A DNA stretch of 64,000 nt from Candidatus Wolfebacteria bacterium. Lineage in GTDB: Bacteria; Patescibacteriota; Minisyncoccia; UBA6257; UBA9933. The stretch is taken from contig JACRPK010000001.1 of assembly GCA_016214005.1 (NCBI GenBank), positions 23,823-87,822 on the forward strand, in the 5' to 3' direction. Below are positions 8,501 to 64,000 of the stretch, in pieces. A program made the translations under genes and the position numbers. The notes under the pieces were generated by a model. That model made no database searches, was not told the DNA's origin, and worked only from the letters and a program-made list of their open reading frames with translations. Position 1 is the stretch's first letter. The number at the start of each line of letters is the position of its first letter.

Positions 8501-9139
8501 ATTAAAATTATAAAACTTAAGACATTAAAATCTTCGGCAAAAGGCGCGAAGAGTAAAATTATTGAATATCCGGTTCCCAAGGGCGCTATGATTTTTGTTA
8601 AATCAGATGATAAAATTTTAAAAGGCGATCAGCTTTGCGAGGGAAGCATTGATCTCCATGAATTATTTGATTTGAAAGGGAAAGAGGCCGTTGAGCGATA
8701 TTTAATAAATGAGATTCAGAAAATTTACGCCTCAGAAGGAAGCGCTATTAATGATAAGCATATTGAGATGATCGTTAGACAAATGTTTTCAAGATTGATG
8801 GTAACGGAAGCAGGGGCTACAAATTTTGTTCCAGGTGAAGTTGTTGAAAAATCAGACTTTTTGGAAAACAATCGTTTAATGAAGGGAAATGGGAAACAAC
8901 CGGCTGTTGCTAAACAACTTTTGATGGGTATTACAAGAATTTCACTGAGCACAAAGAGTTTCTTATCAGCTGTGTCTTTTCAGGAAACAGCCAGAGTGTT
9001 AGTTGGCGCCGCGGTTGAAGGCAAAGAAGACGCCTTAAAAGGTTTGAAAGAAAACGTTATTATTGGAAGACTTATTCCAGCGGGTACGGGACTTAATGCC
9101 AAAGATGAAGCGCTTAAAGAGCCGACGTCTGAAATTTAA
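5567..9139 (+). CDS. rpoC: DNA-directed RNA polymerase subunit beta'
   Basis: 1190 aa; Zn-finger CYCGKYKRIRYKGLKCDKCGVEV, catalytic NADFDGDQMAVH motif, immediately downstream of rpoB. Confidence 0.95.
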   Translation: MNFKSLKIQLASPEKILSWSYGEVLKPETINYRTQRPEKDGLFSERIFGPTKDFECYCGKYKRIRYKGLKCDKCGVEVTKSSVRRERMGHINLASPVVHIWFLRSIPSRIGLFINAPIQKLTKVIYYAAYIVTFVNEEKKKEYFEEIDKEFKSKKKAIEKGKLKDLEEATIIAKENLKALEVGKILTETEYNLLVRKFAGVFKASNGAEAIRNILAAIDLEKEAERVEKEAKNVKDAGKSRKLLYKLKVIKSFIKNKMRPEWMIMTVLPVLPPDLRPMVPLDGGRYATSDLNDLYRRVINRNDRLKKLLEIKAPEIIVTNEKRMLQEAVDALIDNSSRLGSQQQLSASRRPLKSLADILKGKEGRFRQNLLGKRVDYSGRSVIVVGPDLKLNECGLPKKMALELFKPFVSSKIIERGMAHNIRNANRLIEAATPEIWEILEEVIKDKKVLLNRAPTLHRLGIQAFKPVLIEDLAIRIPPMVCSAFNADFDGDQMAVHLPLSEEAQKEATEKMLASGNILKPSTGDPIAQPTQDVVLGCYYLTKIKPIGAQNIKIFSSQEEALMAFHFEIIEINELIKVCLPEMGIVETSAGRLIFNGVLPKDFGFINKQMNKKELGKLLSALIDKYGVKNIWMILDEIKLLGNKYATISGVSWGMDDLTVPQEKKKIVEAAEKEEKIIKEQYEEGLLTDSERHSRATAIWDKTKEEVAKVVPKTLDPLSSVFTIIDSGSRGSWSQPIQMMGMKGLVQNPQGETIELPIKSSYKEGLSVLEFFINTHGARKGLTDTALKTAQAGYLTRRLVDVSQDLVIRENDCKTTKGITMFRSDSDEYGVPFSQRIFGRTALSDIKSGNKIFVEAGEIIGRNKAEEIEKAKIESIEARSPMTCKSTNGICSKCYGFDLSKIQPIELGEAVGVIAAQSIGEPGTQLTLRTFHTGGVAGVDITHGLQRIQELFEVRVPKGKAALAENDGSIEEIEDNKSIKIIKLKTLKSSAKGAKSKIIEYPVPKGAMIFVKSDDKILKGDQLCEGSIDLHELFDLKGKEAVERYLINEIQKIYASEGSAINDKHIEMIVRQMFSRLMVTEAGATNFVPGEVVEKSDFLENNRLMKGNGKQPAVAKQLLMGITRISLSTKSFLSAVSFQETARVLVGAAVEGKEDALKGLKENVIIGRLIPAGTGLNAKDEALKEPTSEI

Positions 9140-18744: not shown

Positions 18745-18820
18745 TCCGCGATAGCTCAGTTGGTAGAGCGCCTCGCTGTTAACGAGGATGTCCCAGGTTC
18801 GAGCCCTGGTCGCGGAGCCA
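18745..18820 (+). tRNA. tRNA-Asn (anticodon GTT), CCA encoded
   Basis: Cloverleaf: acceptor TCCGCGA/TCGCGGA, D-arm TAGCTCAGTTGGTAGAGC, anticodon stem CCTCG/CGAGG with loop CTGTTAA, T-arm GGTTCGAGCC, 3' GCCA. Confidence 0.9.
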
Positions 18821-19036
18821 ATAAATTAGATACGAACTCCGTTTTTGAAGATGAGAGTTCGTTGCGTTCAATTCTGCTACGTATTTAGAACACTCTCAAA
18901 CTTTTGACATCATTTTACCGAATTTAATCCACAAATCTAAGAAACGAAATTTGAAATGATGCGCCCCGCCACTATTTTTCTGGGGCAAAGGAGGCGGGAC
19001 GATGGACTCGCCCGCGCGGAGGAGGGATCTGGGGAG

Positions 19037-19059
19037 CCTGCCTGCCGGCAGGCAGGGAA
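19037..19059. repeat. GC-rich palindromic element CCTGCCTGCCGGCAGGCAGGgaa (copy 1)
   Basis: 20-bp perfect palindrome embedded in a ~120-bp GC-rich structured patch (also 9-bp IR GCCCGCGCG/CGCGCGGGC) ending in a U-tract; 22-nt core identical to 43215-43236. Confidence 0.5.
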
Positions 19060-19140
19060 TTCGCGCGGGCCTCGGCTTTCTTTTTTGAAAAAATTGGCAG
19101 CTACAAAATCAGAAACCATTCTCTCGGCCAACACTTATAG

Positions 19141-19258
19141 CCCATACAACGGCGAGGAAGAGGTTAATCATCGTGATCCGAAAGAAATTTTGGGGGAGAT
19201 TGAAAGCGGCGAGAAGAAACTTAAAATAGCACTGGATAAAGTAAATAAGTTGCTGTAA
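19141..19258 (+). repeat. ~115-bp diverged direct repeat, copy A (peptide-coding-like …NGEEEVNHRDPKEILGEIESGEKKLKIALDKVNKLL*)
   Basis: Aligns (~65% nt) with 20430-20547, which lies immediately after the TA module. Confidence 0.45.
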
Positions 19259-19277: not shown

Positions 19278-19312
19278 TTGACAAGATTTCTTTACTGGAA
19301 TAGTATAGTAAT
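19278..19312 (+). promoter_or_regulatory. candidate promoter TTGACA-17-TAGTAT/TATAGT upstream of XRE-family gene
   Basis: cTTGACAagatttctttactggaaTAGTATAGTaatatATG. Confidence 0.4.
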
Positions 19313-19314
19313 AT

Positions 19315-20106
19315 ATGGTTAATAATTTACATAAAAAACTAAAGTTACTTCGCGAGCAAAAGGGATTTTCGCAGGAACAAATCGCGACAGAACTTAATAT
19401 TTCTCGCCCCACCTATATGCAGATTGAAAAAGGTGAGCGAGAACTCACTATTTCCGAGGCGAAAAAATTGGCCGGTGTTTTTGACATGTCTTTAGAAGAC
19501 TTTCTCGCCGGCAAAGAAAGCGTGAATCCTGTTATAACCATTCAAGGAAGAAAAGAGAAAGAACGAAAAAGCACGAACGAAATTCGCATCAATATCCCTC
19601 AAGAAAAAGCCAATAAGTTTGAGCAAGTTCTTTTATACATTCTTGCGAAGATCGGCGGCAAGCCCAATATCGGTCAAACAGTACTCTATAAACTTTTATA
19701 CTTTATAGATTTTGATTACTACGAAAAATTTGAGGAACAATTGATTGGCGCAAAGTATATGAAAAATACGAATGGGCCCACCCCCATCATGTTTGCCAAG
19801 ATTATTGATCATTTAGAAAAAGATCAAAAAGTAGAAAAGGTAAGAAGCAAATTCTACAAATACGAACAAACCAAGTATCTCGTAAATCCGGACATACCAC
19901 TTGAACTGTCGGCTCTTTCGGCGCAAGAGCTGGCGCATATTGACTGGGAGATTGCTCGGCTTGGAGATATGACTGCAACGCAAATTTCAGCGCTATCTCA
20001 CATTGATACGCCGTGGGTCGCGGCCACCGATAGAGAACCGCTGGAGTATGAGCATGTTTTCTATCGTCCGGAAGAAACCTCCGTCAGACAGTATGAGGAA
20101 ATTTGA
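19315..20106 (+). CDS. XRE-family HTH fused to Panacea/SocA-like (DUF4065) antitoxin domain
   Basis: N-terminus LKLLREQKGFSQEQIATELNISRPTYMQIEKGER (Cro/C1 HTH); C-terminal half KLLYFIDFDYYEKFEEQLIGAKYMK… resembles SocA/Panacea antitoxin domain. Confidence 0.6.
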   Translation: MVNNLHKKLKLLREQKGFSQEQIATELNISRPTYMQIEKGERELTISEAKKLAGVFDMSLEDFLAGKESVNPVITIQGRKEKERKSTNEIRINIPQEKANKFEQVLLYILAKIGGKPNIGQTVLYKLLYFIDFDYYEKFEEQLIGAKYMKNTNGPTPIMFAKIIDHLEKDQKVEKVRSKFYKYEQTKYLVNPDIPLELSALSAQELAHIDWEIARLGDMTATQISALSHIDTPWVAATDREPLEYEHVFYRPEETSVRQYEEI

Positions 20107-20434
20107 TCTTTCACCGGAATTTGGAAAGAATTTCAAACAACTTTTCAAAAAATATAGGACATTGGACGATGACCTTGAGAAGTTTAAGGCAATACTTTTA
20201 ACTCACCCAACCGGAGTCGGAACGAACTTCACCATTATCCACTCGGAACAAGCATGCAAGATTGTAAAAGCTCGCATGGCCTGCCGCGCTCTTCGCGACA
20301 GATCTCTGCGCGTCATTTACGCGTATACGGAAAAAAATGACGGATTTTATTTCATTGAGCTATATTTCAAGGGCGAACAGGTAAACGAAACAAGGTCGCT
20401 TATCAAAGGGTTTTTAGGTCAATTTTCAAAGTAA
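20093..20434 (+). CDS. putative RelE/ParE-superfamily toxin
   Basis: 113 aa, ATGA overlap with upstream antitoxin, C-terminal RSLRVIYAYTEKNDGFYFIELYFKGEQ resembles RelE/ParE core; track ORF 20003 start is an upstream extension. Confidence 0.5.
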   Translation: MRKFDLSPEFGKNFKQLFKKYRTLDDDLEKFKAILLTHPTGVGTNFTIIHSEQACKIVKARMACRALRDRSLRVIYAYTEKNDGFYFIELYFKGEQVNETRSLIKGFLGQFSK

Positions 20435-20547
20435 TATCAACGGTGAGGAAGAAGTGAGCACAGAGAACCGAAGGAGATTTTGAAAGAAATTGGGAATGGA
20501 GAGAAAAAATTGAAGTCGACCCTGGGAGAGGTTAAGAAATTTTTATG
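20430..20547 (+). repeat. ~115-bp diverged direct repeat, copy B (degenerate, frame-broken)
   Basis: …INGEEEV…HREPKEILKEIGNGEKKLKSTLGEVKKFL* with internal stop; pairs with 19141-19258. Confidence 0.45.
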
Positions 20548-21339
20548 AGAAAATTGCGAGCTATAATTCTTGGCGTAAAACTCTTGGCTTCTTTGTTTTT
20601 GTTTAAGTTGCGCAAAGAAACTTTTAAGGTGTCTTTAGCGTCTTCAATTTTGCTTCATTTTGCCAAAGCAATAAAATCCGATGTCAGCTTTTCTACTACG
20701 CCAGAACAGCAAAAAAGGATTATTTCTAAATTTGCCAAAATGAGTCGACTAATCAATGACGCGTTGGAATCAGAAAATATATCACAAGAGAAATTGTTTA
20801 AAATTGTTCAAAACAATAGTCAGGAAATGCATGGCGGCGTTGGAGAAATTACTCGTTCATTTTCCGACATTAAATCTATCGTAGCCAAATCACCTCACCT
20901 TAATGAATTCCTAGAAAACGTAGAGAAATCTTGGAAGGCAAATGATTTGCGGAATATCAAATCAAACAGGAGCTCAGAGATATCACATGATAACATTTTA
21001 AAAGCTACCAAAGAGAGCGGTGGATATTTTTTCCTTGCACTTACTTATTTGTTAAATCCGAAAGGGTTGGACGAAGGGATGAAAGAAGCCATATATAATA
21101 GTGGCGTCTGGTTTCAGTTTTTAGATGACTATAGAGATAGAAAAGAAGATATTTCCAAGAAAAATACCCTATTTACTGAGACAAGCGACCCGCATGAAGA
21201 ATTGCTAAAAAAGTATGTGGCGGAATCTATAACAGAAATTAAAAAAGCTATTGGCGAACAGCACGCTCTGATTAGATTTATGGAAAATCTTACCATGCTG
21301 GTACTTTTGCTTGATTTTGCAAAACTTGACTGGAAATAA
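20545..21339 (+). CDS. hypothetical protein (N-terminal TM; FLDDYRDRKED motif)
   Basis: 264 aa ORF with coding periodicity; no confident family. Confidence 0.45.
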   Translation: MRKLRAIILGVKLLASLFLFKLRKETFKVSLASSILLHFAKAIKSDVSFSTTPEQQKRIISKFAKMSRLINDALESENISQEKLFKIVQNNSQEMHGGVGEITRSFSDIKSIVAKSPHLNEFLENVEKSWKANDLRNIKSNRSSEISHDNILKATKESGGYFFLALTYLLNPKGLDEGMKEAIYNSGVWFQFLDDYRDRKEDISKKNTLFTETSDPHEELLKKYVAESITEIKKAIGEQHALIRFMENLTMLVLLLDFAKLDWK

Positions 21340-21340
21340 T

Positions 21341-21850
21341 ATGCCTTACCAAACAAAAAAATCGGTTGAGAAAATAGAAGATAAATCAAAAGATTATCGA
21401 ATTCTTTTCTCGATTTTAAGTGGGTATAATTCGCACATAATAACGATTGTCATGATTGGGCATTTGTTGACAGAACATCTCCTAGACAAAATTATCACTA
21501 CTAAATACAAAAATACGAAAGCGGCTTTGCGGAAAAGTTTTTCGGAAAAATTAAAGATTCTTTATCTAGAATGGCTGCCATTATTTATTTACAAAAACAT
21601 AAAACTTTTGAATAAGGCCAGAAATGATATAGCGCATAACTTGGGTACCAGTGATCACAAACCAATTATCTATATTCCAAAGGGCGAACAGGAAATTCTT
21701 AACATTCCCAGAAGAAAGAATAAAGAAAAGTTTTACTTTAAGCATTTAATAAATACGGTTTTATTTGATTTAGTAAACCATTCTTATCATTCCTTAAAGA
21801 TTTCAGCGGATACAGATTTAAATCATATCTTTCGTTTGAATAGAAAATAA
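21341..21850 (+). CDS. hypothetical protein with hsdS-type 5' leader and HEPN-like Rx4H motif
   Basis: Starts MPYQTKKSVEKIE (diverged copy of shared leader); contains KARNDIAHNL (R-x4-H); ATG 21341 preferred over track 21311. Confidence 0.45.
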   Translation: MPYQTKKSVEKIEDKSKDYRILFSILSGYNSHIITIVMIGHLLTEHLLDKIITTKYKNTKAALRKSFSEKLKILYLEWLPLFIYKNIKLLNKARNDIAHNLGTSDHKPIIYIPKGEQEILNIPRRKNKEKFYFKHLINTVLFDLVNHSYHSLKISADTDLNHIFRLNRK

Positions 21851-21851
21851 T

Positions 21852-22325
21852 ATGTCTTACCCAACAAAAAAATTAGAAGAAATTTCACAATTAGTGCACG
21901 AGGCACTTAAGTGGATTTCTGATAACGATAGCGGGATATGGTCTACATCAGAGTGGAACATTTGCAGTCATTTAAGTGGCCTACTCCGCGAGCGGTTCAA
22001 AGATTTTGATGTGGATGTCGAATTAATAAAGCGCGATGGTCGCCGTCCTGATATTGTCATTCATGGCCGCGGTCACAACGAAAATAATCTGGTTGTTTTT
22101 CAAGTAAAGAAAAAGCCCAGCTATCAAGACATTGTTGAAGATTTAAAAAAGATAACAGAAACATTTTTCGATGAACCATATAAGTATGCTTACGGAATAT
22201 TTATTTCTATTGGAGAACTTCCTGATAAACTTCCAGAATTTGACAAAAGTAAAATACGTATCCATTCCGTAAGCGGGTGGAAATTAATAACGGATGAGGA
22301 GTGGAAAGAAAAGTATCAATTATGA
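21852..22325 (+). CDS. hypothetical protein with hsdS-type 5' leader (MSYPTKKLEEI)
   Basis: 157 aa; shares first ~11 codons with hsdS; remainder unrelated (possible PD-(D/E)xK-like RPDIVIH…VFQVKK, weak). Confidence 0.5.
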   Translation: MSYPTKKLEEISQLVHEALKWISDNDSGIWSTSEWNICSHLSGLLRERFKDFDVDVELIKRDGRRPDIVIHGRGHNENNLVVFQVKKKPSYQDIVEDLKKITETFFDEPYKYAYGIFISIGELPDKLPEFDKSKIRIHSVSGWKLITDEEWKEKYQL

Positions 22326-23206
22326 TTTGGCCAACAAAAAAATTAGGAGAAATTATACGGTATGCTTTCAAGGGCTTGATGCGAGTTATTGCCTCACGAA
22401 AATCTACTATTAGCAACGAAGTGTCAACACCCAAAGTCACTATTCCTATAAGTCAGTCAACTGGGCAAAAAGCGCAAAGGCCAGAAAACGAATTGCCCGC
22501 TCAAGAAACTATCAAAACAGAAGAAGTGGCCGCCAGTTTTTTAATTTGTCCTATTCAGGGTAACGATTCAAGTGGAGCACCTCTTACTCCATACACTGTA
22601 AAAATTAGTGCGGTTTTGGATCATTCTAGCACGGCTATTGATCCCGACAGTAATAGACATTGGGGTAAAAATGCGAAAGACCAAAAAGTTAAAGCTTTCA
22701 ATGGAGAAATAGGAGAAGGTGCGCAATGTCCTCAAGAACCCTGCGGTTATCCCAAAAAAGATGGCGGTGAGTTTTTTCAAAACAAAGAAATTAACTATGT
22801 GGGAGTTTCGTATGATGGCGGGAAAAATACTTTACAATACGACGGTCATGCCGGCTATGATTTTTCGTATCCAAAGTTTACGCCCGTAGTAGCACCGGCA
22901 GATGGCAAATTATATAAAGCTGCGCAGGGCAAAGATCTTATATATGGGGCGAATTGGAATACTGACGGCTCTTTTTATATTGTCCATGAGAATGGTTTTG
23001 TAACATGGTTTCGCCATTGTGAAAAATTAGCCGATTCTTTAGAAACGCAAATCTTAAATGATTTTACACAATTTTGCGCCGTAACGCGGGGCGATGTCAT
23101 TGCTTATGTAGGGAATAAAGGAACGCGTCCAGTCCATCTGCATTTTGAGGTAAGGGATAAAGACGGGGAAATTGTTGATCCGTATAAAGACAAACTATGG
23201 AAGTAG
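22322..23206 (+). CDS. M23 family metallopeptidase with hsdS-type 5' leader (MIWPTKKLGEI)
   Basis: C-terminal LytM/M23 signatures GHAGYDF … HLHFEV; N-terminus shares leader; ATG 22322. Confidence 0.6.
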   Translation: MIWPTKKLGEIIRYAFKGLMRVIASRKSTISNEVSTPKVTIPISQSTGQKAQRPENELPAQETIKTEEVAASFLICPIQGNDSSGAPLTPYTVKISAVLDHSSTAIDPDSNRHWGKNAKDQKVKAFNGEIGEGAQCPQEPCGYPKKDGGEFFQNKEINYVGVSYDGGKNTLQYDGHAGYDFSYPKFTPVVAPADGKLYKAAQGKDLIYGANWNTDGSFYIVHENGFVTWFRHCEKLADSLETQILNDFTQFCAVTRGDVIAYVGNKGTRPVHLHFEVRDKDGEIVDPYKDKLWK

Positions 23207-23210
23207 AATT

Positions 23211-24359
23211 ATGACCTATCCAACAAAAAAATTAGGAGAGGTTGCAGAGGTGATAATGGGGCAATCGCCGCCTTCATCCAGTTACAACGAACAAGGCAAA
23301 GGATTGCCGTTTTTTCAGGGCAAGGCTGAATTTGGGGAGATTTATCCTGCCCCAGTTAAATATTGCTCATCTCCAAGTCGTATTGCTGAGGCGAATGATG
23401 TTTTAATATCTGTCCGCGCACCAGTAGGAAATATCAATATCGCAAGAGAAAAATCTTGTGTCGGTCGTGGTCTCGGAGCTCTCCGTGCAAAAAAGAACAT
23501 TTTAAATCAGATGTTCCTGTTTTATTTCATGAAAAAGAATGAAAATAATTGGTCTCGACTTTTAACTGGGAGCACATTTTCCGCAATCAAGGGAAGTAGT
23601 TTGAAAAACTTTGGAATCCCTCTCCCGCCCCTCGAAATCCAAAAACAAATCGTTGAGCGGTTGGATAAGATTGTTGAGGCGCAGAAATTGAATGACGACC
23701 TCATCCAAAAAGCCGACGAGCTTTTCCAGTCACTTTTACATAAAGAACTCAACCCGGTCGGTAAGGATTGGGATATTAAAAAATTGAGTGAAATTGGAGA
23801 AATTGTTACAGGAAATACTCCATCTACAAAGAACGGCGATTACTGGAATGGAGAATTTTTATGGGCAACGCCAACAGATATTAAAGAGAATACATTTATA
23901 CTTACAGATACGCCAAAGAAATTAAGCCACGAAGGATACGAAAAGACCCGCCCTGTGCCTCAGAACGCGATTCTGGTAACTTGTATTGCTTCTATCGGTA
24001 AAATGGCAATCGCTGGTAAAGAAATGGCGACCAACCAACAGATCAACTCGATAGTATGTAATAAAGACAACGATCCGCTTTTTATATTTTTCTCGCTTCA
24101 AAAAGATAAAAAGAAACTTATATCACTTGGGAAAACTACCGCAGTACCAATAATAAATAAAAGTGAATTTGGACGAATTAAAATTTTCCTTCCCCCTCTC
24201 GAAACCCAAAAACAAATCGTCGCTAAACTTTCCGCGGTTCAGGACTATAAAAAACAGCTTCTTGAGCAAAAAATGAAATTTAAAGAGTTGTTTGATTCTG
24301 CTTTGGCGGAGTCAATGACGAGCGAGAAAAGTCGAAAGTCGTCAGAGTTTTTGATCTGA
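23211..24359 (+). CDS. hsdS: type I restriction-modification specificity subunit HsdS (orphan: no hsdM/hsdR in window)
   Basis: MTYPTKKLGEV start, two TRDs each followed by conserved LPPLE(I/T)QKQIV…L coiled-coil repeat (internal ~24-bp direct repeats at ~23634 and ~24196). Confidence 0.8.
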   Translation: MTYPTKKLGEVAEVIMGQSPPSSSYNEQGKGLPFFQGKAEFGEIYPAPVKYCSSPSRIAEANDVLISVRAPVGNINIAREKSCVGRGLGALRAKKNILNQMFLFYFMKKNENNWSRLLTGSTFSAIKGSSLKNFGIPLPPLEIQKQIVERLDKIVEAQKLNDDLIQKADELFQSLLHKELNPVGKDWDIKKLSEIGEIVTGNTPSTKNGDYWNGEFLWATPTDIKENTFILTDTPKKLSHEGYEKTRPVPQNAILVTCIASIGKMAIAGKEMATNQQINSIVCNKDNDPLFIFFSLQKDKKKLISLGKTTAVPIINKSEFGRIKIFLPPLETQKQIVAKLSAVQDYKKQLLEQKMKFKELFDSALAESMTSEKSRKSSEFLI

Positions 24360-24464
24360 AATAATTTATGGAAATTGAATCAAAACAATAAATTTTAGAA
24401 CGGCAGAAAGAGATTGAGCAGAAATTATATAATTTTAGAAAATATATGATATAATATTATAAAT

Positions 24465-25127
24465 ATGTCGCTCCTTTTTATTCCAAAAAAATACAGCGTG
24501 GAAAGCAAGCGGGAAGCCGTTGCTTCGCTTTTGGAAAACACTGTCCCCGACAGAGATTTTTATCTTTTGGTAATCGGCGCCATTATTCTTGCCTCCTGCG
24601 GAATATTGACTGACAGCATCCCTGTTCTTATCGCGAGTATGATCGTTGCGCCGCTCGCGTATCCGATTCTTTCCATGGCTCTTGCCATACCGGCGCGCGA
24701 CGGAAAACTCTTTCTCCGCTCGCTTTTCATGCTTTTAATTTCAATCGCGCTCGCTATTATCGTTGCTGGATTCTTTTCGTTGTTTGCGAAAAGCTATTTT
24801 GATGTTGCCGAGCGCGTGTTCATCTCCTTTTTCCCGAATGTCTTTTTTGACTTGATGATTGCGATTGTCGCGGGCGTCATTGCCGCTTATGGTCTTATCC
24901 GCGTAAAAGTTGGAGAGGCCATGACCGGTATTGGTATCGCGGTATCGCTTATGCCGCCTTTGGTCGCCACTGGCATCGGCTTGTTTGATCCGGTAAATAG
25001 TCTGGCGTTTCGCGCGGGGAGCATATTTCTTCTAAATGTTGCCGGAATTCTCGCTGGAAGCATGATCACGTTTTTGATTTTCGGTTTGTATAAAGAACGC
25101 GGCGCTATAAAAAATAATTTGAATTAA
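24465..25127 (+). CDS. DUF389-like integral membrane protein
   Basis: 220 aa, 6 TM, Gly/Ala-rich helices; GC noticeably higher than backbone. Confidence 0.45.
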   Translation: MSLLFIPKKYSVESKREAVASLLENTVPDRDFYLLVIGAIILASCGILTDSIPVLIASMIVAPLAYPILSMALAIPARDGKLFLRSLFMLLISIALAIIVAGFFSLFAKSYFDVAERVFISFFPNVFFDLMIAIVAGVIAAYGLIRVKVGEAMTGIGIAVSLMPPLVATGIGLFDPVNSLAFRAGSIFLLNVAGILAGSMITFLIFGLYKERGAIKNNLN

Positions 25128-43191: not shown

Positions 43192-43214
43192 CTTTGTCGG
43201 GCTGCCGAGAATCA

Positions 43215-43236
43215 CTGCCTGCCGGCAGGCAGGGAA
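43215..43236. repeat. GC-rich palindromic element CTGCCTGCCGGCAGGCAGGGAA (copy 2)
   Basis: 22/22 identical to 19038-19059; sits just upstream of tRNA-Pro/tRNA-Arg pair. Confidence 0.5.
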
Positions 43237-61936: not shown

Positions 61937-62008
61937 GGTGGCCATAGCTTAGTGGTAAAGCTCCGCTCTGTGGAAGCGGCTATACGGGTTCGATTCCCGT
62001 TGGTCACC
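61937..62008 (+). tRNA. tRNA-His (anticodon GTG) with encoded G-1
   Basis: G(-1)-GTGGCCA-TA-GCTT-AGTGGTA-AAGC-T-CCGCT-CTGTGGA-AGCGG-CTAT-ACGGG-TTCGATT-CCCGT-TGGTCAC-C. Confidence 0.9.
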
Positions 62009-62044
62009 CCCTGAATTGGACATCTCATCTGTTATTGACAAATA

Positions 62045-62073
62045 TAGCGTTTAGGTGTATACTAAATATAGTT
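62045..62073 (+). promoter_or_regulatory. near-consensus sigma70 promoter TTGACA-17-TATACT driving DGR target gene
   Basis: TTGACA 62045-50, 17-nt spacer, TATACT 62068-73; ~130-nt 5'UTR; RBS AAGGAG 8 nt before ATG 62213. Confidence 0.5.
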
Positions 62074-62102
62074 CTTTGATAAAACTTGCGATTGGTCATA
62101 GC

Positions 62103-62152
62103 GAAAAGTGGCTTAAAACTAGGCTATTCCTCGCTATGACCATACAGGCCAT
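62103..62152 (+). promoter_or_regulatory. 12-bp inverted repeat TGGTCATAGCGA…TCGCTATGACCA (26-nt spacer) in 5'UTR of DGR target
   Basis: Perfect 12-bp arms; could form RNA hairpin or operator. Confidence 0.4.
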
Positions 62153-62212
62153 GGTTCCTCCTCGGATTAGAGGAAAACGAAAACGGGCAAATTAACCCAA
62201 GGAGATACAATC

Positions 62213-62854
62213 ATGAGTGCAGGAACAGAATTCGCATCCGCCGGACTTACCGCCGGCCAACTCAACGCCATCGTCAAGAAGCTCGGTGGCCACGACATGG
62301 CGCTCCGTTTTCTCCGCGACGAACTCTCGGTTTCCGAACCGATCCGTTCGTGGCGCGAGAAAGACGGCGTCATCTACTTCAGCGTCACCTCCGACGGCAC
62401 GACTGGCGAAGACTGGATCAAGCGTCTGGAAGGCAACGGTTTCCGCGTCAGAGACTACGCCAAGCAGGTGCTCCGTTCCCCGGACTTCAAGCCGACCAAC
62501 GGCGAGACGACCGAAGTTGCCGTTCTCAAGGGCATGCTCTTCGAGGACAACGACCGGATCACGAAGAAGATTCGGGCCGAGGCCGACAAGCGCAAGCTCT
62601 CGAAGCCGAACGCCGAACTGGCCTGCCTCATCCGTCTGAAGTTCACGGACAAGGAGATCGAAGCCATGGGTCTGTGGTGGATCGTCGCAATGCACGAACC
62701 CATCAACGATTCCGACGGCGATCCGCGCTTGCTGGGCGCGAGCCGTTACGGCGATGGTCGCTGGCTCGGCGCGTGCAGCGGCAGGCCTGGCCTCGGGTGG
62801 CGTCGTGGCGTCGGGTTCGCGTTCGCCGTGTCGCAAGTCAGTTCTCAACACTAA
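62213..62854 (+). CDS. DGR target (variable) protein; C-terminal ~44 aa encoded by VR
   Basis: 213 aa, high-GC codon usage; VR at its 3' end; C-terminus …GVGFAFAVSQ; overlapping antisense/offset ORFs in track are GC-shadow ORFs. Confidence 0.7.
   Translation: MSAGTEFASAGLTAGQLNAIVKKLGGHDMALRFLRDELSVSEPIRSWREKDGVIYFSVTSDGTTGEDWIKRLEGNGFRVRDYAKQVLRSPDFKPTNGETTEVAVLKGMLFEDNDRITKKIRAEADKRKLSKPNAELACLIRLKFTDKEIEAMGLWWIVAMHEPINDSDGDPRLLGASRYGDGRWLGACSGRPGLGWRRGVGFAFAVSQVSSQH
62709..62839 (+). repeat. DGR variable repeat (VR), 131 bp
   Basis: Aligns gap-free with TR 63182-63312; ~23 mismatches, every one at a position where TR has A (VR has G/C/T). Confidence 0.75.
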
Positions 62855-62890
62855 GATCCTCGGGACTTCAGTCCCTTTGAACTTAGCCCT

Positions 62891-62931
62891 TAGCCCTGTT
62901 CCGATCCGTCGGAGCAGGGCTAATTTTTTTT
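62891..62931 (+). terminator. GC-rich stem-loop + U-tract downstream of VR (terminator and/or DGR target-recognition hairpin)
   Basis: TAGCCCTGttccga-tccg-tcggagCAGGGCTA followed by ATTTTTTTT; additional small hairpin GGGACTtcaGTCCC at 62868-62881. Confidence 0.6.
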
Positions 62932-63181
62932 CATAAAATATAAAATCGGCTATAATATTTACGGCAGTAGGTGAATATGTGGGCGGTCAAGGCTTCCCGC
63001 TACCGAACCCAGTATCCATGCATCGGGAGTATCCGCGGCCACGGTTTCGGATAGAGTGGTGCATGCAGAAACTTCAATAAAAAAGAAGATACTTGGCGCG
63101 AGACATTATGGCATTGCGATGCCGGATTCGATTCAGCCCTGAGAGTATTCGAGGGGTGGTGATATGGAAGATGTTTCGCGC

Positions 63182-63312
63182 AATCCGACGGCGATCCGAA
63201 CTTGCTGAACGCGAACCGTAACGACGATGGTCGCTGGCTCAACGCGTACAACGACAGGCCTGACAACAGGTGGAATCGTGACAACGGGTTCGCGTTCGCC
63301 GTGTCGCAAATC
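63182..63312 (+). repeat. DGR template repeat (TR), 131 bp, Asn(AAC)-rich in target frame
   Basis: In VR register encodes SDGDPNLLNANRNDDGRWLNAYNDRPDNRWNRDNGFAFAVSQI; all differences from VR are at TR adenines. Confidence 0.75.
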
Positions 63313-63315
63313 TCT

Positions 63316-63729
63316 TCATTTCTCTCCGGCTTTCGCTGGAGAGTTTTGTTTTGCGAGTTGTCCGTTCCAACCGCCGAGCATCTTGCCGGCTTCATCCAAC
63401 TTTACTGAAAGAGCAATGTATTTTTTATCGTCGAGTGATTTCGTTTCCCAGAGCACCAAAAGAAGTACGCGGAGAGTATCCGCTTTCTTAATCGCGAGGC
63501 GAACATACGGATGCTTCTCGGTAGGTGAGAGAAAACTGGCGGCCGATATCGCTTCTATCACTTCAACAAATAAAGTGTCGATGCGCTGACCGAGAGAATG
63601 ACGATGCACCTTGGGCAAGTCCTGATAAAATTTGTACCACAAAAGGTACGACTCCTTGACTTTATTTAAAACCGGTAAAATTCTTAATGGTTGGTTGCCA
63701 CCGTTATGTCCAAAATTAGATTTCAACAT
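63316..63729 (-). CDS. avd: Avd-like accessory variability determinant (four-helix-bundle protein)
   Basis: C-terminal ~110 aa …LLWYKFYQDLPKVHRHSLGQRIDTLFVEVIEAIS…KLDEAGKMLGGW… matches Avd/TIGR02436 pattern (VW..Y.L…FPK.E…LG.QI … IAEVGRMLGGW). Upstream part of the 223-aa track ORF overlaps RT and is shadow; start may be ATG 63729 or TTG 63642. Confidence 0.55.
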   Translation of the reverse strand: MLKSNFGHNGGNQPLRILPVLNKVKESYLLWYKFYQDLPKVHRHSLGQRIDTLFVEVIEAISAASFLSPTEKHPYVRLAIKKADTLRVLLLVLWETKSLDDKKYIALSVKLDEAGKMLGGWNGQLAKQNSPAKAGEK

Positions 63730-64000
63730 ACATATAATAATATCATTTCTCTCGAAAATCTCCTCGAGGCGTGGAAAGAATTTGTCCGCGGCAAGCGATC
63801 GCGTAAAGACGTGCAGGAATTCGAGCGAGATTTGATGACGAATCTTATCGCGCTTCACCGCGAGCTTGCCGCCAAAAAATATTCGCACTCGGCATATCAG
63901 CATTTCAAAATCGCCGATCCGAAACCGCGCGATATTCATAAAGCCAGCGTTCGGGACCGGCTTTTGCATCACGCATTGCACAGACAACTGTCGCCGTTTT
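63706..64000 (+). CDS. reverse transcriptase (DGR-type), 5' partial to window edge
   Basis: MSKIRFQHTYNNIISLENLLEAWKEFVRGKRSRKDVQEFERDLMTNLIALHRELAAKKYSHSAYQHFKIADPKPRDIHKASVRDRLLHHALHRQLSPF = RT domain 0/1/2 (…P.PR.I.K..G..R…DR..QHA). Confidence 0.8.
   Translation, partial: MSKIRFQHTYNNIISLENLLEAWKEFVRGKRSRKDVQEFERDLMTNLIALHRELAAKKYSHSAYQHFKIADPKPRDIHKASVRDRLLHHALHRQLSPF

Follow-up and report, generated by a model that had tools for sequence, protein, structure and literature searches.

Accessory genes, including nucleases and abortive-infection effectors, are embedded in and co-expressed with some hsd operons of Type I restriction-modification (R-M) systems, as is the case for prrC of EcoprrI and rlo of Campylobacter (PMC3874165; PMC12707154), and hsdS gives rise to hybrid specificities by unequal crossing-over (PMC3874165). 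We describe here a stretch of 64,000 nucleotides from a Candidatus Wolfebacteria bacterium (contig JACRPK010000001.1, positions 23,823 to 87,822; the window in what follows) in which four consecutive genes, the last of them hsdS, begin with the same short segment of hsdS coding sequence, which we call the leader. This locus, too, has non-R-M genes embedded in an hsd operon: between hsdM and hsdS it carries genes for a predicted nuclease-fold protein, a peptidase, a probable toxin-antitoxin pair and others, and embedded accessory genes such as prrC provide a functional precedent for these genes, which we refer to as cargo (PMC3874165; PMC12707154). However, the two reviews describe neither a shared hsdS 5' end nor a repeated junction at which cargo is exchanged. 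In addition, up to six cargo genes are stacked here, and hsdR and most of hsdM have been lost within the window.

The locus resembles hsdS shuffling in that short conserved segments anchor swaps, and the hsdS of the window itself combines a first target recognition domain (TRD1) like that of one related locus (L064) with a first conserved region, second TRD and second conserved region (CR1-TRD2-CR2) like those of another (L051). In contrast to hsdS shuffling and shufflons, whole unrelated genes are swapped, the repeats are direct, and the locus has only one hsdS and no invertase. With integrons the locus shares co-directional arrays of small genes of unknown or defence-type function, a recurring site, and the presence of the same gene in different arrays. 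At attI1, the short open reading frame (ORF) ORF-11 lies at the insertion site and aids translation of the next cassette, a parallel to the stub described below. Unlike in integrons, there is no intI and no evident structured site of the attC type, and the recurring site lies 5' of each gene, overlaps coding sequence and is derived from hsdS. No integron integrase gene was found either beside the array or in those related Type I loci that were annotated, an inverted-repeat search of positions 20400-24500 returned only weak, distant pairs, and the intergenic gaps of 1-4 nt would leave no room for attC, the imperfect inverted repeat (R''-L''...L'-R') that closes each integron cassette on its 3' side. 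Identity with an integron was therefore rejected.

Among known systems, the mechanism proposed below comes closest to the "mobile regulatory cassette" of T4-type phages, the PeSL, in which short, conserved expression signals flank nonessential ORFs in hyperplastic regions and homologous recombination leads to insertion, deletion, replacement and mini-circles (PMC2839356). In contrast to PeSLs, which consist of phage promoter and terminator stem-loops, the module described here is a start/stop-restart module derived from coding sequence in bacterial chromosomes. Neither shared hsdS leaders nor these junctions were found in the incompletely covered literature, in which embedded accessory genes and hsdS shuffling were found. 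As far as we have checked, the phenomenon has not been described before and is a variation on two known themes, the carriage of cargo by R-M operons and shuffling at conserved sequences that are short.

The repeated hsdS leader in a decayed Type I operon

An earlier note on this DNA had reported near-identical in-frame 5' modules on the four genes starting at 21341, 21852, 22322 and 23211 (all on the plus strand), and these modules proved to be real and far beyond chance. The leader is in frame in all four genes, whose products begin with MPYQTKKSVEKI, MSYPTKKLEEI, MIWPTKKLGEI and MTYPTKKLGEV, respectively. Its general form is ATG-NNN-T(A/G)(C/T/G)-CC(A)ACAAAAAAAT..., corresponding to M-x-[YW]-P/Q-T-K-K-[LS]-[GEV]-E, with the module beginning at codon 4 in every copy and a core, CCAACAAAAAAATTAG, that is exact in three copies and diverged in the remaining one. 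A repeat search of the region against itself recovered one family of direct repeats (D1), 47 nt long and present in four copies, which includes approximately 15 nt upstream of each ATG. A 23-nt pattern (TAYCCAACAAAAAAATTAGRAGA) had three matches within the mismatch limit compared to 0.01 expected, and none of 100 shuffles reached three. Over the first 33 nt from the ATG, leader copies 2 (21852..21884), 3 (22322..22354) and 4 (23211..23243, the native hsdS start) are identical to each other at 27 or 28 positions, and the diverged copy 1 (21341..21373) matches the others at 21 to 24. Pattern and identity searches found no further copy in the rest of the window. By direct reading and from the ORF list, the genes of the array are co-directional and tightly packed, with gaps of 1-4 nt or an ATGA overlap. 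The leader copies all contain a run of seven adenines (21863-21869, 22333-22339, and 23222-23228), which occupies codons 5-7 and is phased A_AAA_AAA.

Only the last of the four genes encodes a real HsdS, as had been noted earlier. This gene (23211..24359, plus strand) is intact, and its product of 382 amino acids has two TRDs and two conserved regions, with matches to Pfam Methylase_S (4.1e-56) in two stretches and to PADLOC Specificity_I (3.4e-66) and with the LPPLExQKQIV repeat. The earlier description of an orphan hsdS in a window devoid of hsdM and hsdR was right only in part: a truncated hsdM remnant shows that hsdS is the surviving end of a Type I operon that has degraded. The remnant comprises the last 62 or so codons of hsdM (19070..19258, plus strand) and lies within an ORF (18956-19258) directly after tRNA-Asn; residues 39-100 of this ORF correspond to the HsdM C-terminus, with 60% identity over 62 amino acids to the HsdM of a related locus (L010; BLASTP E value of 7e-21) and a match to our hsdM hidden Markov model (HMM) at 1.4e-8. 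Intact hsdM or hsdR, the latter lying upstream of hsdM in related loci, was not detected in the 64-kb window with our own hsdM, hsdS and hsdR HMMs, for which only 2-5 sequences were used and which could overlook divergent genes. The island reads, in order, hsdM remnant, XRE-SocA/Panacea antitoxin gene, small overlapping ORF, gene for a 264-amino-acid protein of unknown function, P1, P2, M23 peptidase gene and hsdS. The four-gene array is therefore the hsdS-proximal end of a cargo bay with six cargo genes in a decayed Type I R-M operon.

We compared the window with about 150 related loci, a sample biased by retrieval with exact DNA patterns and consisting entirely of metagenome assemblies. Homologues of P1, P2 and the M23 protein were confined to metagenomes of the candidate phyla radiation (CPR), where the same cargo stands before hsdS in other orders and combinations, in Type I operons that are complete or in part preserved: hsdR-hsdM-DUF6119-P2-hsdS (L001), hsdM-KAP NTPase-M23-hsdS (L010), hsdR-x-hsdM-RT-P1-hsdS with a reverse transcriptase (RT) gene (L013/L014), hsdM-...-P1-X294-hsdS (L016), hsdM-...-P1-X219-hsdS (L083/L051), and hsdR-NYN-hsdM-...-P1-hsdS (L084). 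In these example loci the leader is found on the cargo gene nearest hsdS and on none of those nearest hsdM (RT, KAP NTPase, and DUF6119). CPR Type I systems of this family accumulate accessory genes between hsdM and hsdS, with the families combined in various ways.

The positions at which homology to these loci breaks off provide the main evidence. In blastn comparisons, the window matches L083/L051 at 92% identity from 21352 through P1 to 21885, the 3' edge of leader 2, beyond which P2 in the window faces the unrelated X219. The match to L001, in which P2 is followed by hsdS, covers 21862-22354 and ends at the edge of leader 3, and the match to L010 covers 22536-23243 and ends at the edge of leader 4. 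Homology to L064 covers 23211-23773 and begins at the hsdS ATG, the gene upstream being a different one in L064. Homology to L051, whose TRD1 differs, covers 23615-24298; the TRD1 of the window HsdS is 86% identical to that of L064, and its CR1-TRD2-CR2 is 85% identical to that of L051 at the DNA level. This last block is ordinary hsdS TRD swapping. Every blastn homology block between the window and the related loci starts or ends at a leader edge, which points to the leaders as sites of crossover. One of the possibilities raised in the earlier note, that of cassette capture or recombination at a conserved site, is supported by both the changing order of the cargo and the positions of the breaks.

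The leader itself comes and goes in cargo orthologues. P1 orthologues occur in two forms, one starting MEDKSKD... and the other M-x-[YW]-P-T-K-K-L-G-E-N-[I/V/M]-EDKSKD..., so that elsewhere they have an intact MPYPTKKLGEN leader or none; one member retains the internal Met (..KKLGENMEDKSKD). A second P1 junction class, ..KKLGEDKSKN, points to a separate origin, whether by an independent fusion or by a deletion that came later. Upstream of the "short" P1 of L016 a leader persists out of frame (tggccaacaaaaaattagtagaaaatATG; about 8975-8995), its run of seven adenines being reduced to six. Most P2 orthologues begin MNIEEI..., and only some have a [W]PTKK extension. M23 orthologues with at least approximately 69% identity mostly carry the leader, and distant ones start M...NL.KIL.... 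Judging from these alignments, the leader of the cargo genes is grafted and not native.

Leaders and junctions in other genomes

The leader pattern CCAACAAAAAAATTAGRAGA, scanned in one genome per species, was found at 65 loci, mostly in Patescibacteria, with some in metagenome-assembled genomes labelled Gammaproteobacteria and a few in archaea and Bacteroidota. Apart from about a dozen chance or internal matches, the leader sits 3-7 codons after an ATG. The approximately 71 exact matches comprised 27 genuine hsdS starts, 11 in-frame fusions to proteins other than HsdS (8 of them outside P1, P2, and M23), 16-21 stubs, and about 12 chance matches. The leader thus occurs in three states: as hsdS start, as in-frame fusion and as stub. 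Stubs are 10-12 codons long (M..WPTKKLGE-stop) and lie inside a conserved junction, TGGCCAACAAAAAAATTAGGAGAATAAATTTATG, here called type A. Many run on as ...TTAGGAGAATAAATTTATG into an unrelated gene, the stop codon of the stub lying 5 nt before the ATG of the cargo. A clean single insertion is seen in L108, in which the hsdM stop overlaps the ATG of a stub, a gene for a 155-amino-acid membrane protein follows, and a second leader opens hsdS. In 16 further loci of the scan with both genes detected, the gap between hsdM and hsdS is 1.4-3.6 kb.

A 25-mer from the junction (AAAAAATTAGGAGAATAAATTTATG) was present at 63 metagenome loci, mainly from groundwater, ahead of about 40 different proteins. 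Roughly 45 copies are preceded by TGGCCAAC or a one-base variant of it, a few follow nothing that resembles a leader, and some have no ATG ahead of them. About 13 of these loci are in a detectable hsdM and/or hsdS context; the finding of no hsd gene near many stub loci is soft because the HMMs were built from few seeds. Sampled cargo of the junction includes GmrSD-HNH, PIF1 helicase, GIY-YIG, NUDIX, AIG2/GGACT, GH19 and Hypoth_Ymh proteins, and 83 of the 102 type A copies finish with the ATG of an ORF that is 50 codons or longer. L109 and L130 have only a 415-nt block in common, at 96% identity, which consists of a junction, an ORF for a protein of 117 amino acids and the next junction between unrelated flanks. 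The common part of L098, L115, and L117 is limited to a junction and a 137-amino-acid ORF, and L099 and L101 are 99.7% identical and diverge just past the cargo stop. In these alignments, junction-flanked ORFs move like cassettes.

The arrays hold 3-8 junctions. A second type, B (AAAGTCGAARAATTAATTGAGAAATAAAATTATG), co-occurs with type A in the same arrays (for example, L005 7656-7722, 8456-8495, and 10549-10599; L109 6455-6530; L130 1735-1810; also L139 and L115), with 25 copies that had not been selected for and none in shuffles. Type B often overlaps the stop codon of the upstream ORF. Hybrids of type B and the hsdS-leader junction also occur, such as TGGTCAACAAAAAATTAGGAGAATAAAATTATG at L005 10853-10893, and the P1 leader of the window (AAAAAAATCGGTTGAGAAAATAGAA) resembles type B. 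Junctions of types A and B in L002 and L005 also alternate between six and seven adenines. A phage origin, for which the viral collection gave only three matches of the element, was set aside.

Five arrays in which no hsd gene was detected (L005, L111, L115, L127, and L154) begin beside a divergently transcribed gene. In four of them Pfam identifies this gene as a fusion of LexA_DNA_bind, Peptidase_S24 and a DNA methyltransferase, encoded on the minus strand relative to the array (L005 1-1447, L111 1242-3077, L127 8095-9552, and L154 1-1451); the methyltransferase part is N6_N4_Mtase or, in L111, N6_Mtase/Eco57I-like. In L115 only the LexA-like N-terminus of the fusion is on the contig (1-598 in reverse-complement coordinates). 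These arrays carry the same cargo classes, namely RT, M23, polyprenyl-synthase-like and KAP NTPase genes. The LexA-S24-methyltransferase gene thus recurs as an anchor for cargo arrays and is possibly SOS-linked. The phenomenon is widespread in CPR bacteria.

Proposed mechanism and competing explanations

We consider it probable that the leader acts as a joint for recombination over short homology and at the same time provides start and restart signals, here in the cargo bay of a Type I operon that has degraded. The first 11 or so codons of hsdS would form the seam between gene modules, and insertion or replacement beside hsdS would leave one leader copy before the incoming gene and one before hsdS. 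Once several copies are present, recombination within the genome or with DNA of relatives could add, remove or exchange modules. Joining in frame would give the cargo gene the hsdS start codon and an N-terminal extension of about 10 residues, as in P1, P2 and M23, and such fusions would be by-products. Joining out of frame would produce a stub of 10-12 codons with a stop a few bases before the cargo ATG, which would allow translational coupling. We favour exchange of the RecA or short-homology type, possibly after DNA uptake, and long homology in neighbouring conserved genes (hsdM, P1, and hsdS) may help the exchange. Microhomology with the generic A/T-rich context of start codons is a possible starting point. 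The idea that capture relied on homology of the leader GGAGA to Shine-Dalgarno sequences of incoming genes is weakened, since most genes of the window have no Shine-Dalgarno sequence; for the same reason, the GGAGA need not be a ribosome-binding site here.

Several points weigh against the recombination joint. No recombination event was directly observed, and the exact locus, like the exact proteins of the window, was found on a single contig. The leaders are only about 25-34 nt long, which is marginal for RecA-dependent exchange, and no recombinase was seen in the window flanks or the annotated related Type I loci. The bias of exact-pattern retrieval, the few sequences behind the hsd HMMs and the general lack of Shine-Dalgarno sequences count on the same side. 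Chimeric joins at repeats are also conceivable in metagenome assemblies. However, the 34-nt repeat is shorter than the final assembly k-mers suggested by some contig names (k141 and k127), and several arrangements recur in independent samples.

A wider reading, which we hold only tentatively, is that CPR bacteria possess an as yet undescribed gene-cassette system in which the approximately 34-nt junction of type A, with its origin in the first hsdS codons, and its relative, type B, serve both as recombination site and as stop-restart signal and thereby stack and trade defence-type genes. Its anchors might be Type I hsdM...hsdS operons and LexA-S24-methyltransferase arrays, and the window might then be one small instance of it, a suggestion that we likewise regard as possible rather than probable.

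Dedicated site-specific recombination of the integron kind, with the hsdS start as attachment site and the modules as true cassettes, is unlikely. It would account for the very high conservation of the junction over more than 60 loci with unrelated cargo, for the shifting of cassette-sized blocks between unrelated flanks, for arrays of several junctions and for the unselected recurrence of type B in the same arrays, and two small palindromes, TGGCCA and ATAAATTTAT, can be read within the junction. However, no integrase or recombinase is present in the window flanks or in the annotated loci L001, L010, L013/L014, L016, L083/L051, and L084, the junction has no evident attC-like imperfect hairpin, and the gene that recurs beside the hsd-free arrays is the LexA-S24-DNA methyltransferase fusion and not a recombinase.

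That the similarity is kept merely as a translation start or restart module (A-rich, with an optional GGAG), copied or converged and with no role in recombination, appears quite improbable. The tight packing of the genes and the position of the stub stop just ahead of the cargo ATG agree with such a module, and the junction towards its 3' end (AATAAATTTATG) is similar to the A/T-rich sequence that generally precedes ordinary genes of the window. However, selection for expression does not predict near-identity over 25-34 nt including synonymous positions, nor does it predict homology breaks at leader edges or the movement of ORFs as units, and the other genes of the window manage without the module. 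The junction was also considered as a sigma-70 promoter, with TTGGCC/TTGACC and TAAATT approximately 19 nt apart by eye; this candidate was rejected, as the transcription start would follow the ATG. A promoter scan of the region gave nothing above chance.

It is very unlikely that the leader is a functional N-terminal peptide of HsdS and the accessory proteins that serves in docking onto an HsdM complex, targeting or regulation. The earlier note had proposed a shared docking peptide, and the in-frame position of the leader in all four genes is in its favour, as are the recognizable [WY]PTKKL in subsets of P1, P2, and M23 orthologues, two of which do not adjoin hsdS (L002 and L008), and the report that PrrC is held in the Type I enzyme complex (PMC3874165). 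However, the peptide is not conserved in homologues: in many with intact bodies it has been lost, decayed or frameshifted, and it is decayed even in intact operons, as in the P2 of L001 (MPGSIKTIEEV) and the M23 protein of L010 (MSRQTQRLIEI). In the P1 alignment only KK reaches a majority among the leader columns, whereas the following EDKSKD is invariant or nearly so. The leader DNA is also conserved as a stop-ended stub, sometimes without an ATG and thus untranslated. In the structure models, the first 7 or so residues of P2 have no secondary structure, and residues 1-15 of P1 have a pLDDT below 50. Decay, frameshift or absence together with disorder in the models make a docking role unlikely. 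In HsdS the motif opens each TRD, with TRD2 starting DWDIKKLSEIGEI, and is therefore part of the fold there and not a free tag.

Programmed phase variation (the recombinational switching of the earlier note), in which the protein made would change within a population through deletion from one direct repeat to another or through slippage at A7, is scarcely credible. Direct repeats can delete the DNA between them, A7 recurs in every copy as a possible slippage hotspot with a frame-breaking A6 variant in L016, and phase-variable hsdS loci are well known. However, only a donor could reverse such a deletion, seven adenines are few for slippage to be efficient, the locus has one hsdS with direct repeats and no invertible segments, inverted repeats, spare hsdS genes or recombinase in its flanks, and no population variants were found, the identical proteins being on a single contig.

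Cargo genes, island borders and significance

The three leader-bearing cargo genes encode distinct proteins. P1 (21341..21850, plus strand) is an all-helical protein of 169 amino acids, in which R94 and H99 are invariant in 31 aligned sequences. This R94-x4-H99 agrees with the Rx4-6H motif of the HEPN superfamily, so that the motif given in the earlier note stands, but the HEPN assignment is unproven. P2 (21852..22325, plus strand), listed previously as an unknown protein of 157 amino acids, is present as read, but it has a restriction-endonuclease-like alpha/beta core and is a predicted PD-(D/E)xK nuclease-fold protein. P66-D67, K86 and E57 are invariant in its family, and between them most members have Q84 as the middle residue (FQVKK), with E there in a few (FEVKK). 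The third gene (22322..23206, plus strand) encodes, as had been recognized, an M23 metallopeptidase of 294 amino acids (Pfam Peptidase_M23, 1.3e-13; 51.3 bits compared to a cutoff of 28.7), with the zinc-ligand motifs HxxxD (GHAGYD) and HxH (HLH in VHLHFE); it is 100% identical to an NCBI protein of Candidatus Wolfebacteria, and no signal peptide is evident by eye.

GH19 (chitinase/lysozyme-like) cargo in L096 (136-969) and L141 (8102-8935), given in junction orientation with L096 reverse-complemented, has an N-terminal helix and a Pro/Thr-rich linker similar to those of the M23 family. The M23 N-terminus reads M..NL.KIL..L...F.K... and that of GH19 MNVFKEIIKLIVEFFSQKSP..., with no obvious signal peptide. 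The presence of both M23 and GH19 cargo indicates that cell-wall hydrolases recur in these defence-type arrays. RT genes (RVT_1, about 500-526 amino acids) were found in L013 (7497-9001; not called as a gene in the NCBI record), L014 (783-2285), and L115 (717-2297; reverse-complement coordinates), and they thus form part of the cargo of a Sungbacteria Type I operon, where they separate hsdM from P1, as well as of a LexA-methyltransferase array.

Upstream of P1 lie three cargo genes on the plus strand. The first (19315..20106) encodes an XRE-type helix-turn-helix (HTH) fused to a SocA/Panacea antitoxin domain (HTH_3, 2.7e-15; SocA_Panacea, 7.8e-16), has no leader and is preceded by a promoter-like TTGACA-17-TAGTAT at 19278-19306. 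A small ORF from the ORF list (20003..20434, start probably ATG 20093) overlaps its end; it had no family match and is a putative toxin partner by its position. The segment 19315-20434 probably represents the insertion of a toxin-antitoxin pair immediately behind the hsdM remnant. In L084 a SocA_Panacea gene lies just downstream of hsdS. The next gene (20545..21339) encodes a 264-amino-acid protein without leader that has a DDYRD motif and a subthreshold match to polyprenyl_synt (E value of 0.043). The DDYRD is DDxxD-like, clear polyprenyl_synt-like cargo is present in L154 (4289-5269), and there are hints of an isoprenoid-synthase-fold family that recurs in these islands. The cargo genes of this degraded operon are all intact. 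Judged by context, the most plausible role of the predicted nuclease, the M23 peptidase, the putative toxin-antitoxin pair and P1 is that of PrrC-like accessories in defence or abortive infection.

The left border of the island is formed by tRNA-Asn(GTT) (18745..18820, plus strand; ARAGORN), and the flanks are housekeeping in character (ABC transporter, tRNA-Asn, DUF389, MscL, and DUF3850). No integrase or recombinase gene is present in the window flanks, and no copy of the tRNA-Asn 3' end was found downstream of the island. There is therefore no sign of integrase-type insertion, and such insertion at tRNA-Asn was rejected. A GC-rich palindrome, CTGCCTGCCGGCAGGCAGG, occurs twice in the AT-rich window, at 19037-19056, exactly the truncation point of hsdM, and at 43214-43233, adjoining tRNA-Pro; this palindrome is possibly a small repeat element that took part in the deletion of hsdM. 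The end of the window (62000-64000) has a GC content of 0.48-0.55 compared to about 0.35 elsewhere and contains only overlapping short ORFs on both strands, which fits the start of a putative rRNA operon after tRNA-His.

Most of the known ways in which genes enter and leave defence islands depend on mobile elements or integrases. The locus suggests a minimal route for genome-reduced and probably naturally transformable bacteria, in which the duplicated 5' end of a resident gene would be a portable seam that both recombines and gives translation signals. In this genome, what looked like an orphan hsdS is the end that survives from a degraded Type I operon. If the proposal is correct, it would offer a simple sequence tag with which candidate defence genes could be harvested from CPR metagenomes, with about 40 cargo families so far, including GmrSD-HNH, PIF1 helicase, GIY-YIG, reverse transcriptase, KAP NTPase, NUDIX, M23 and GH19 hydrolases, and it would provide a testable model of integrase-free cassette exchange.

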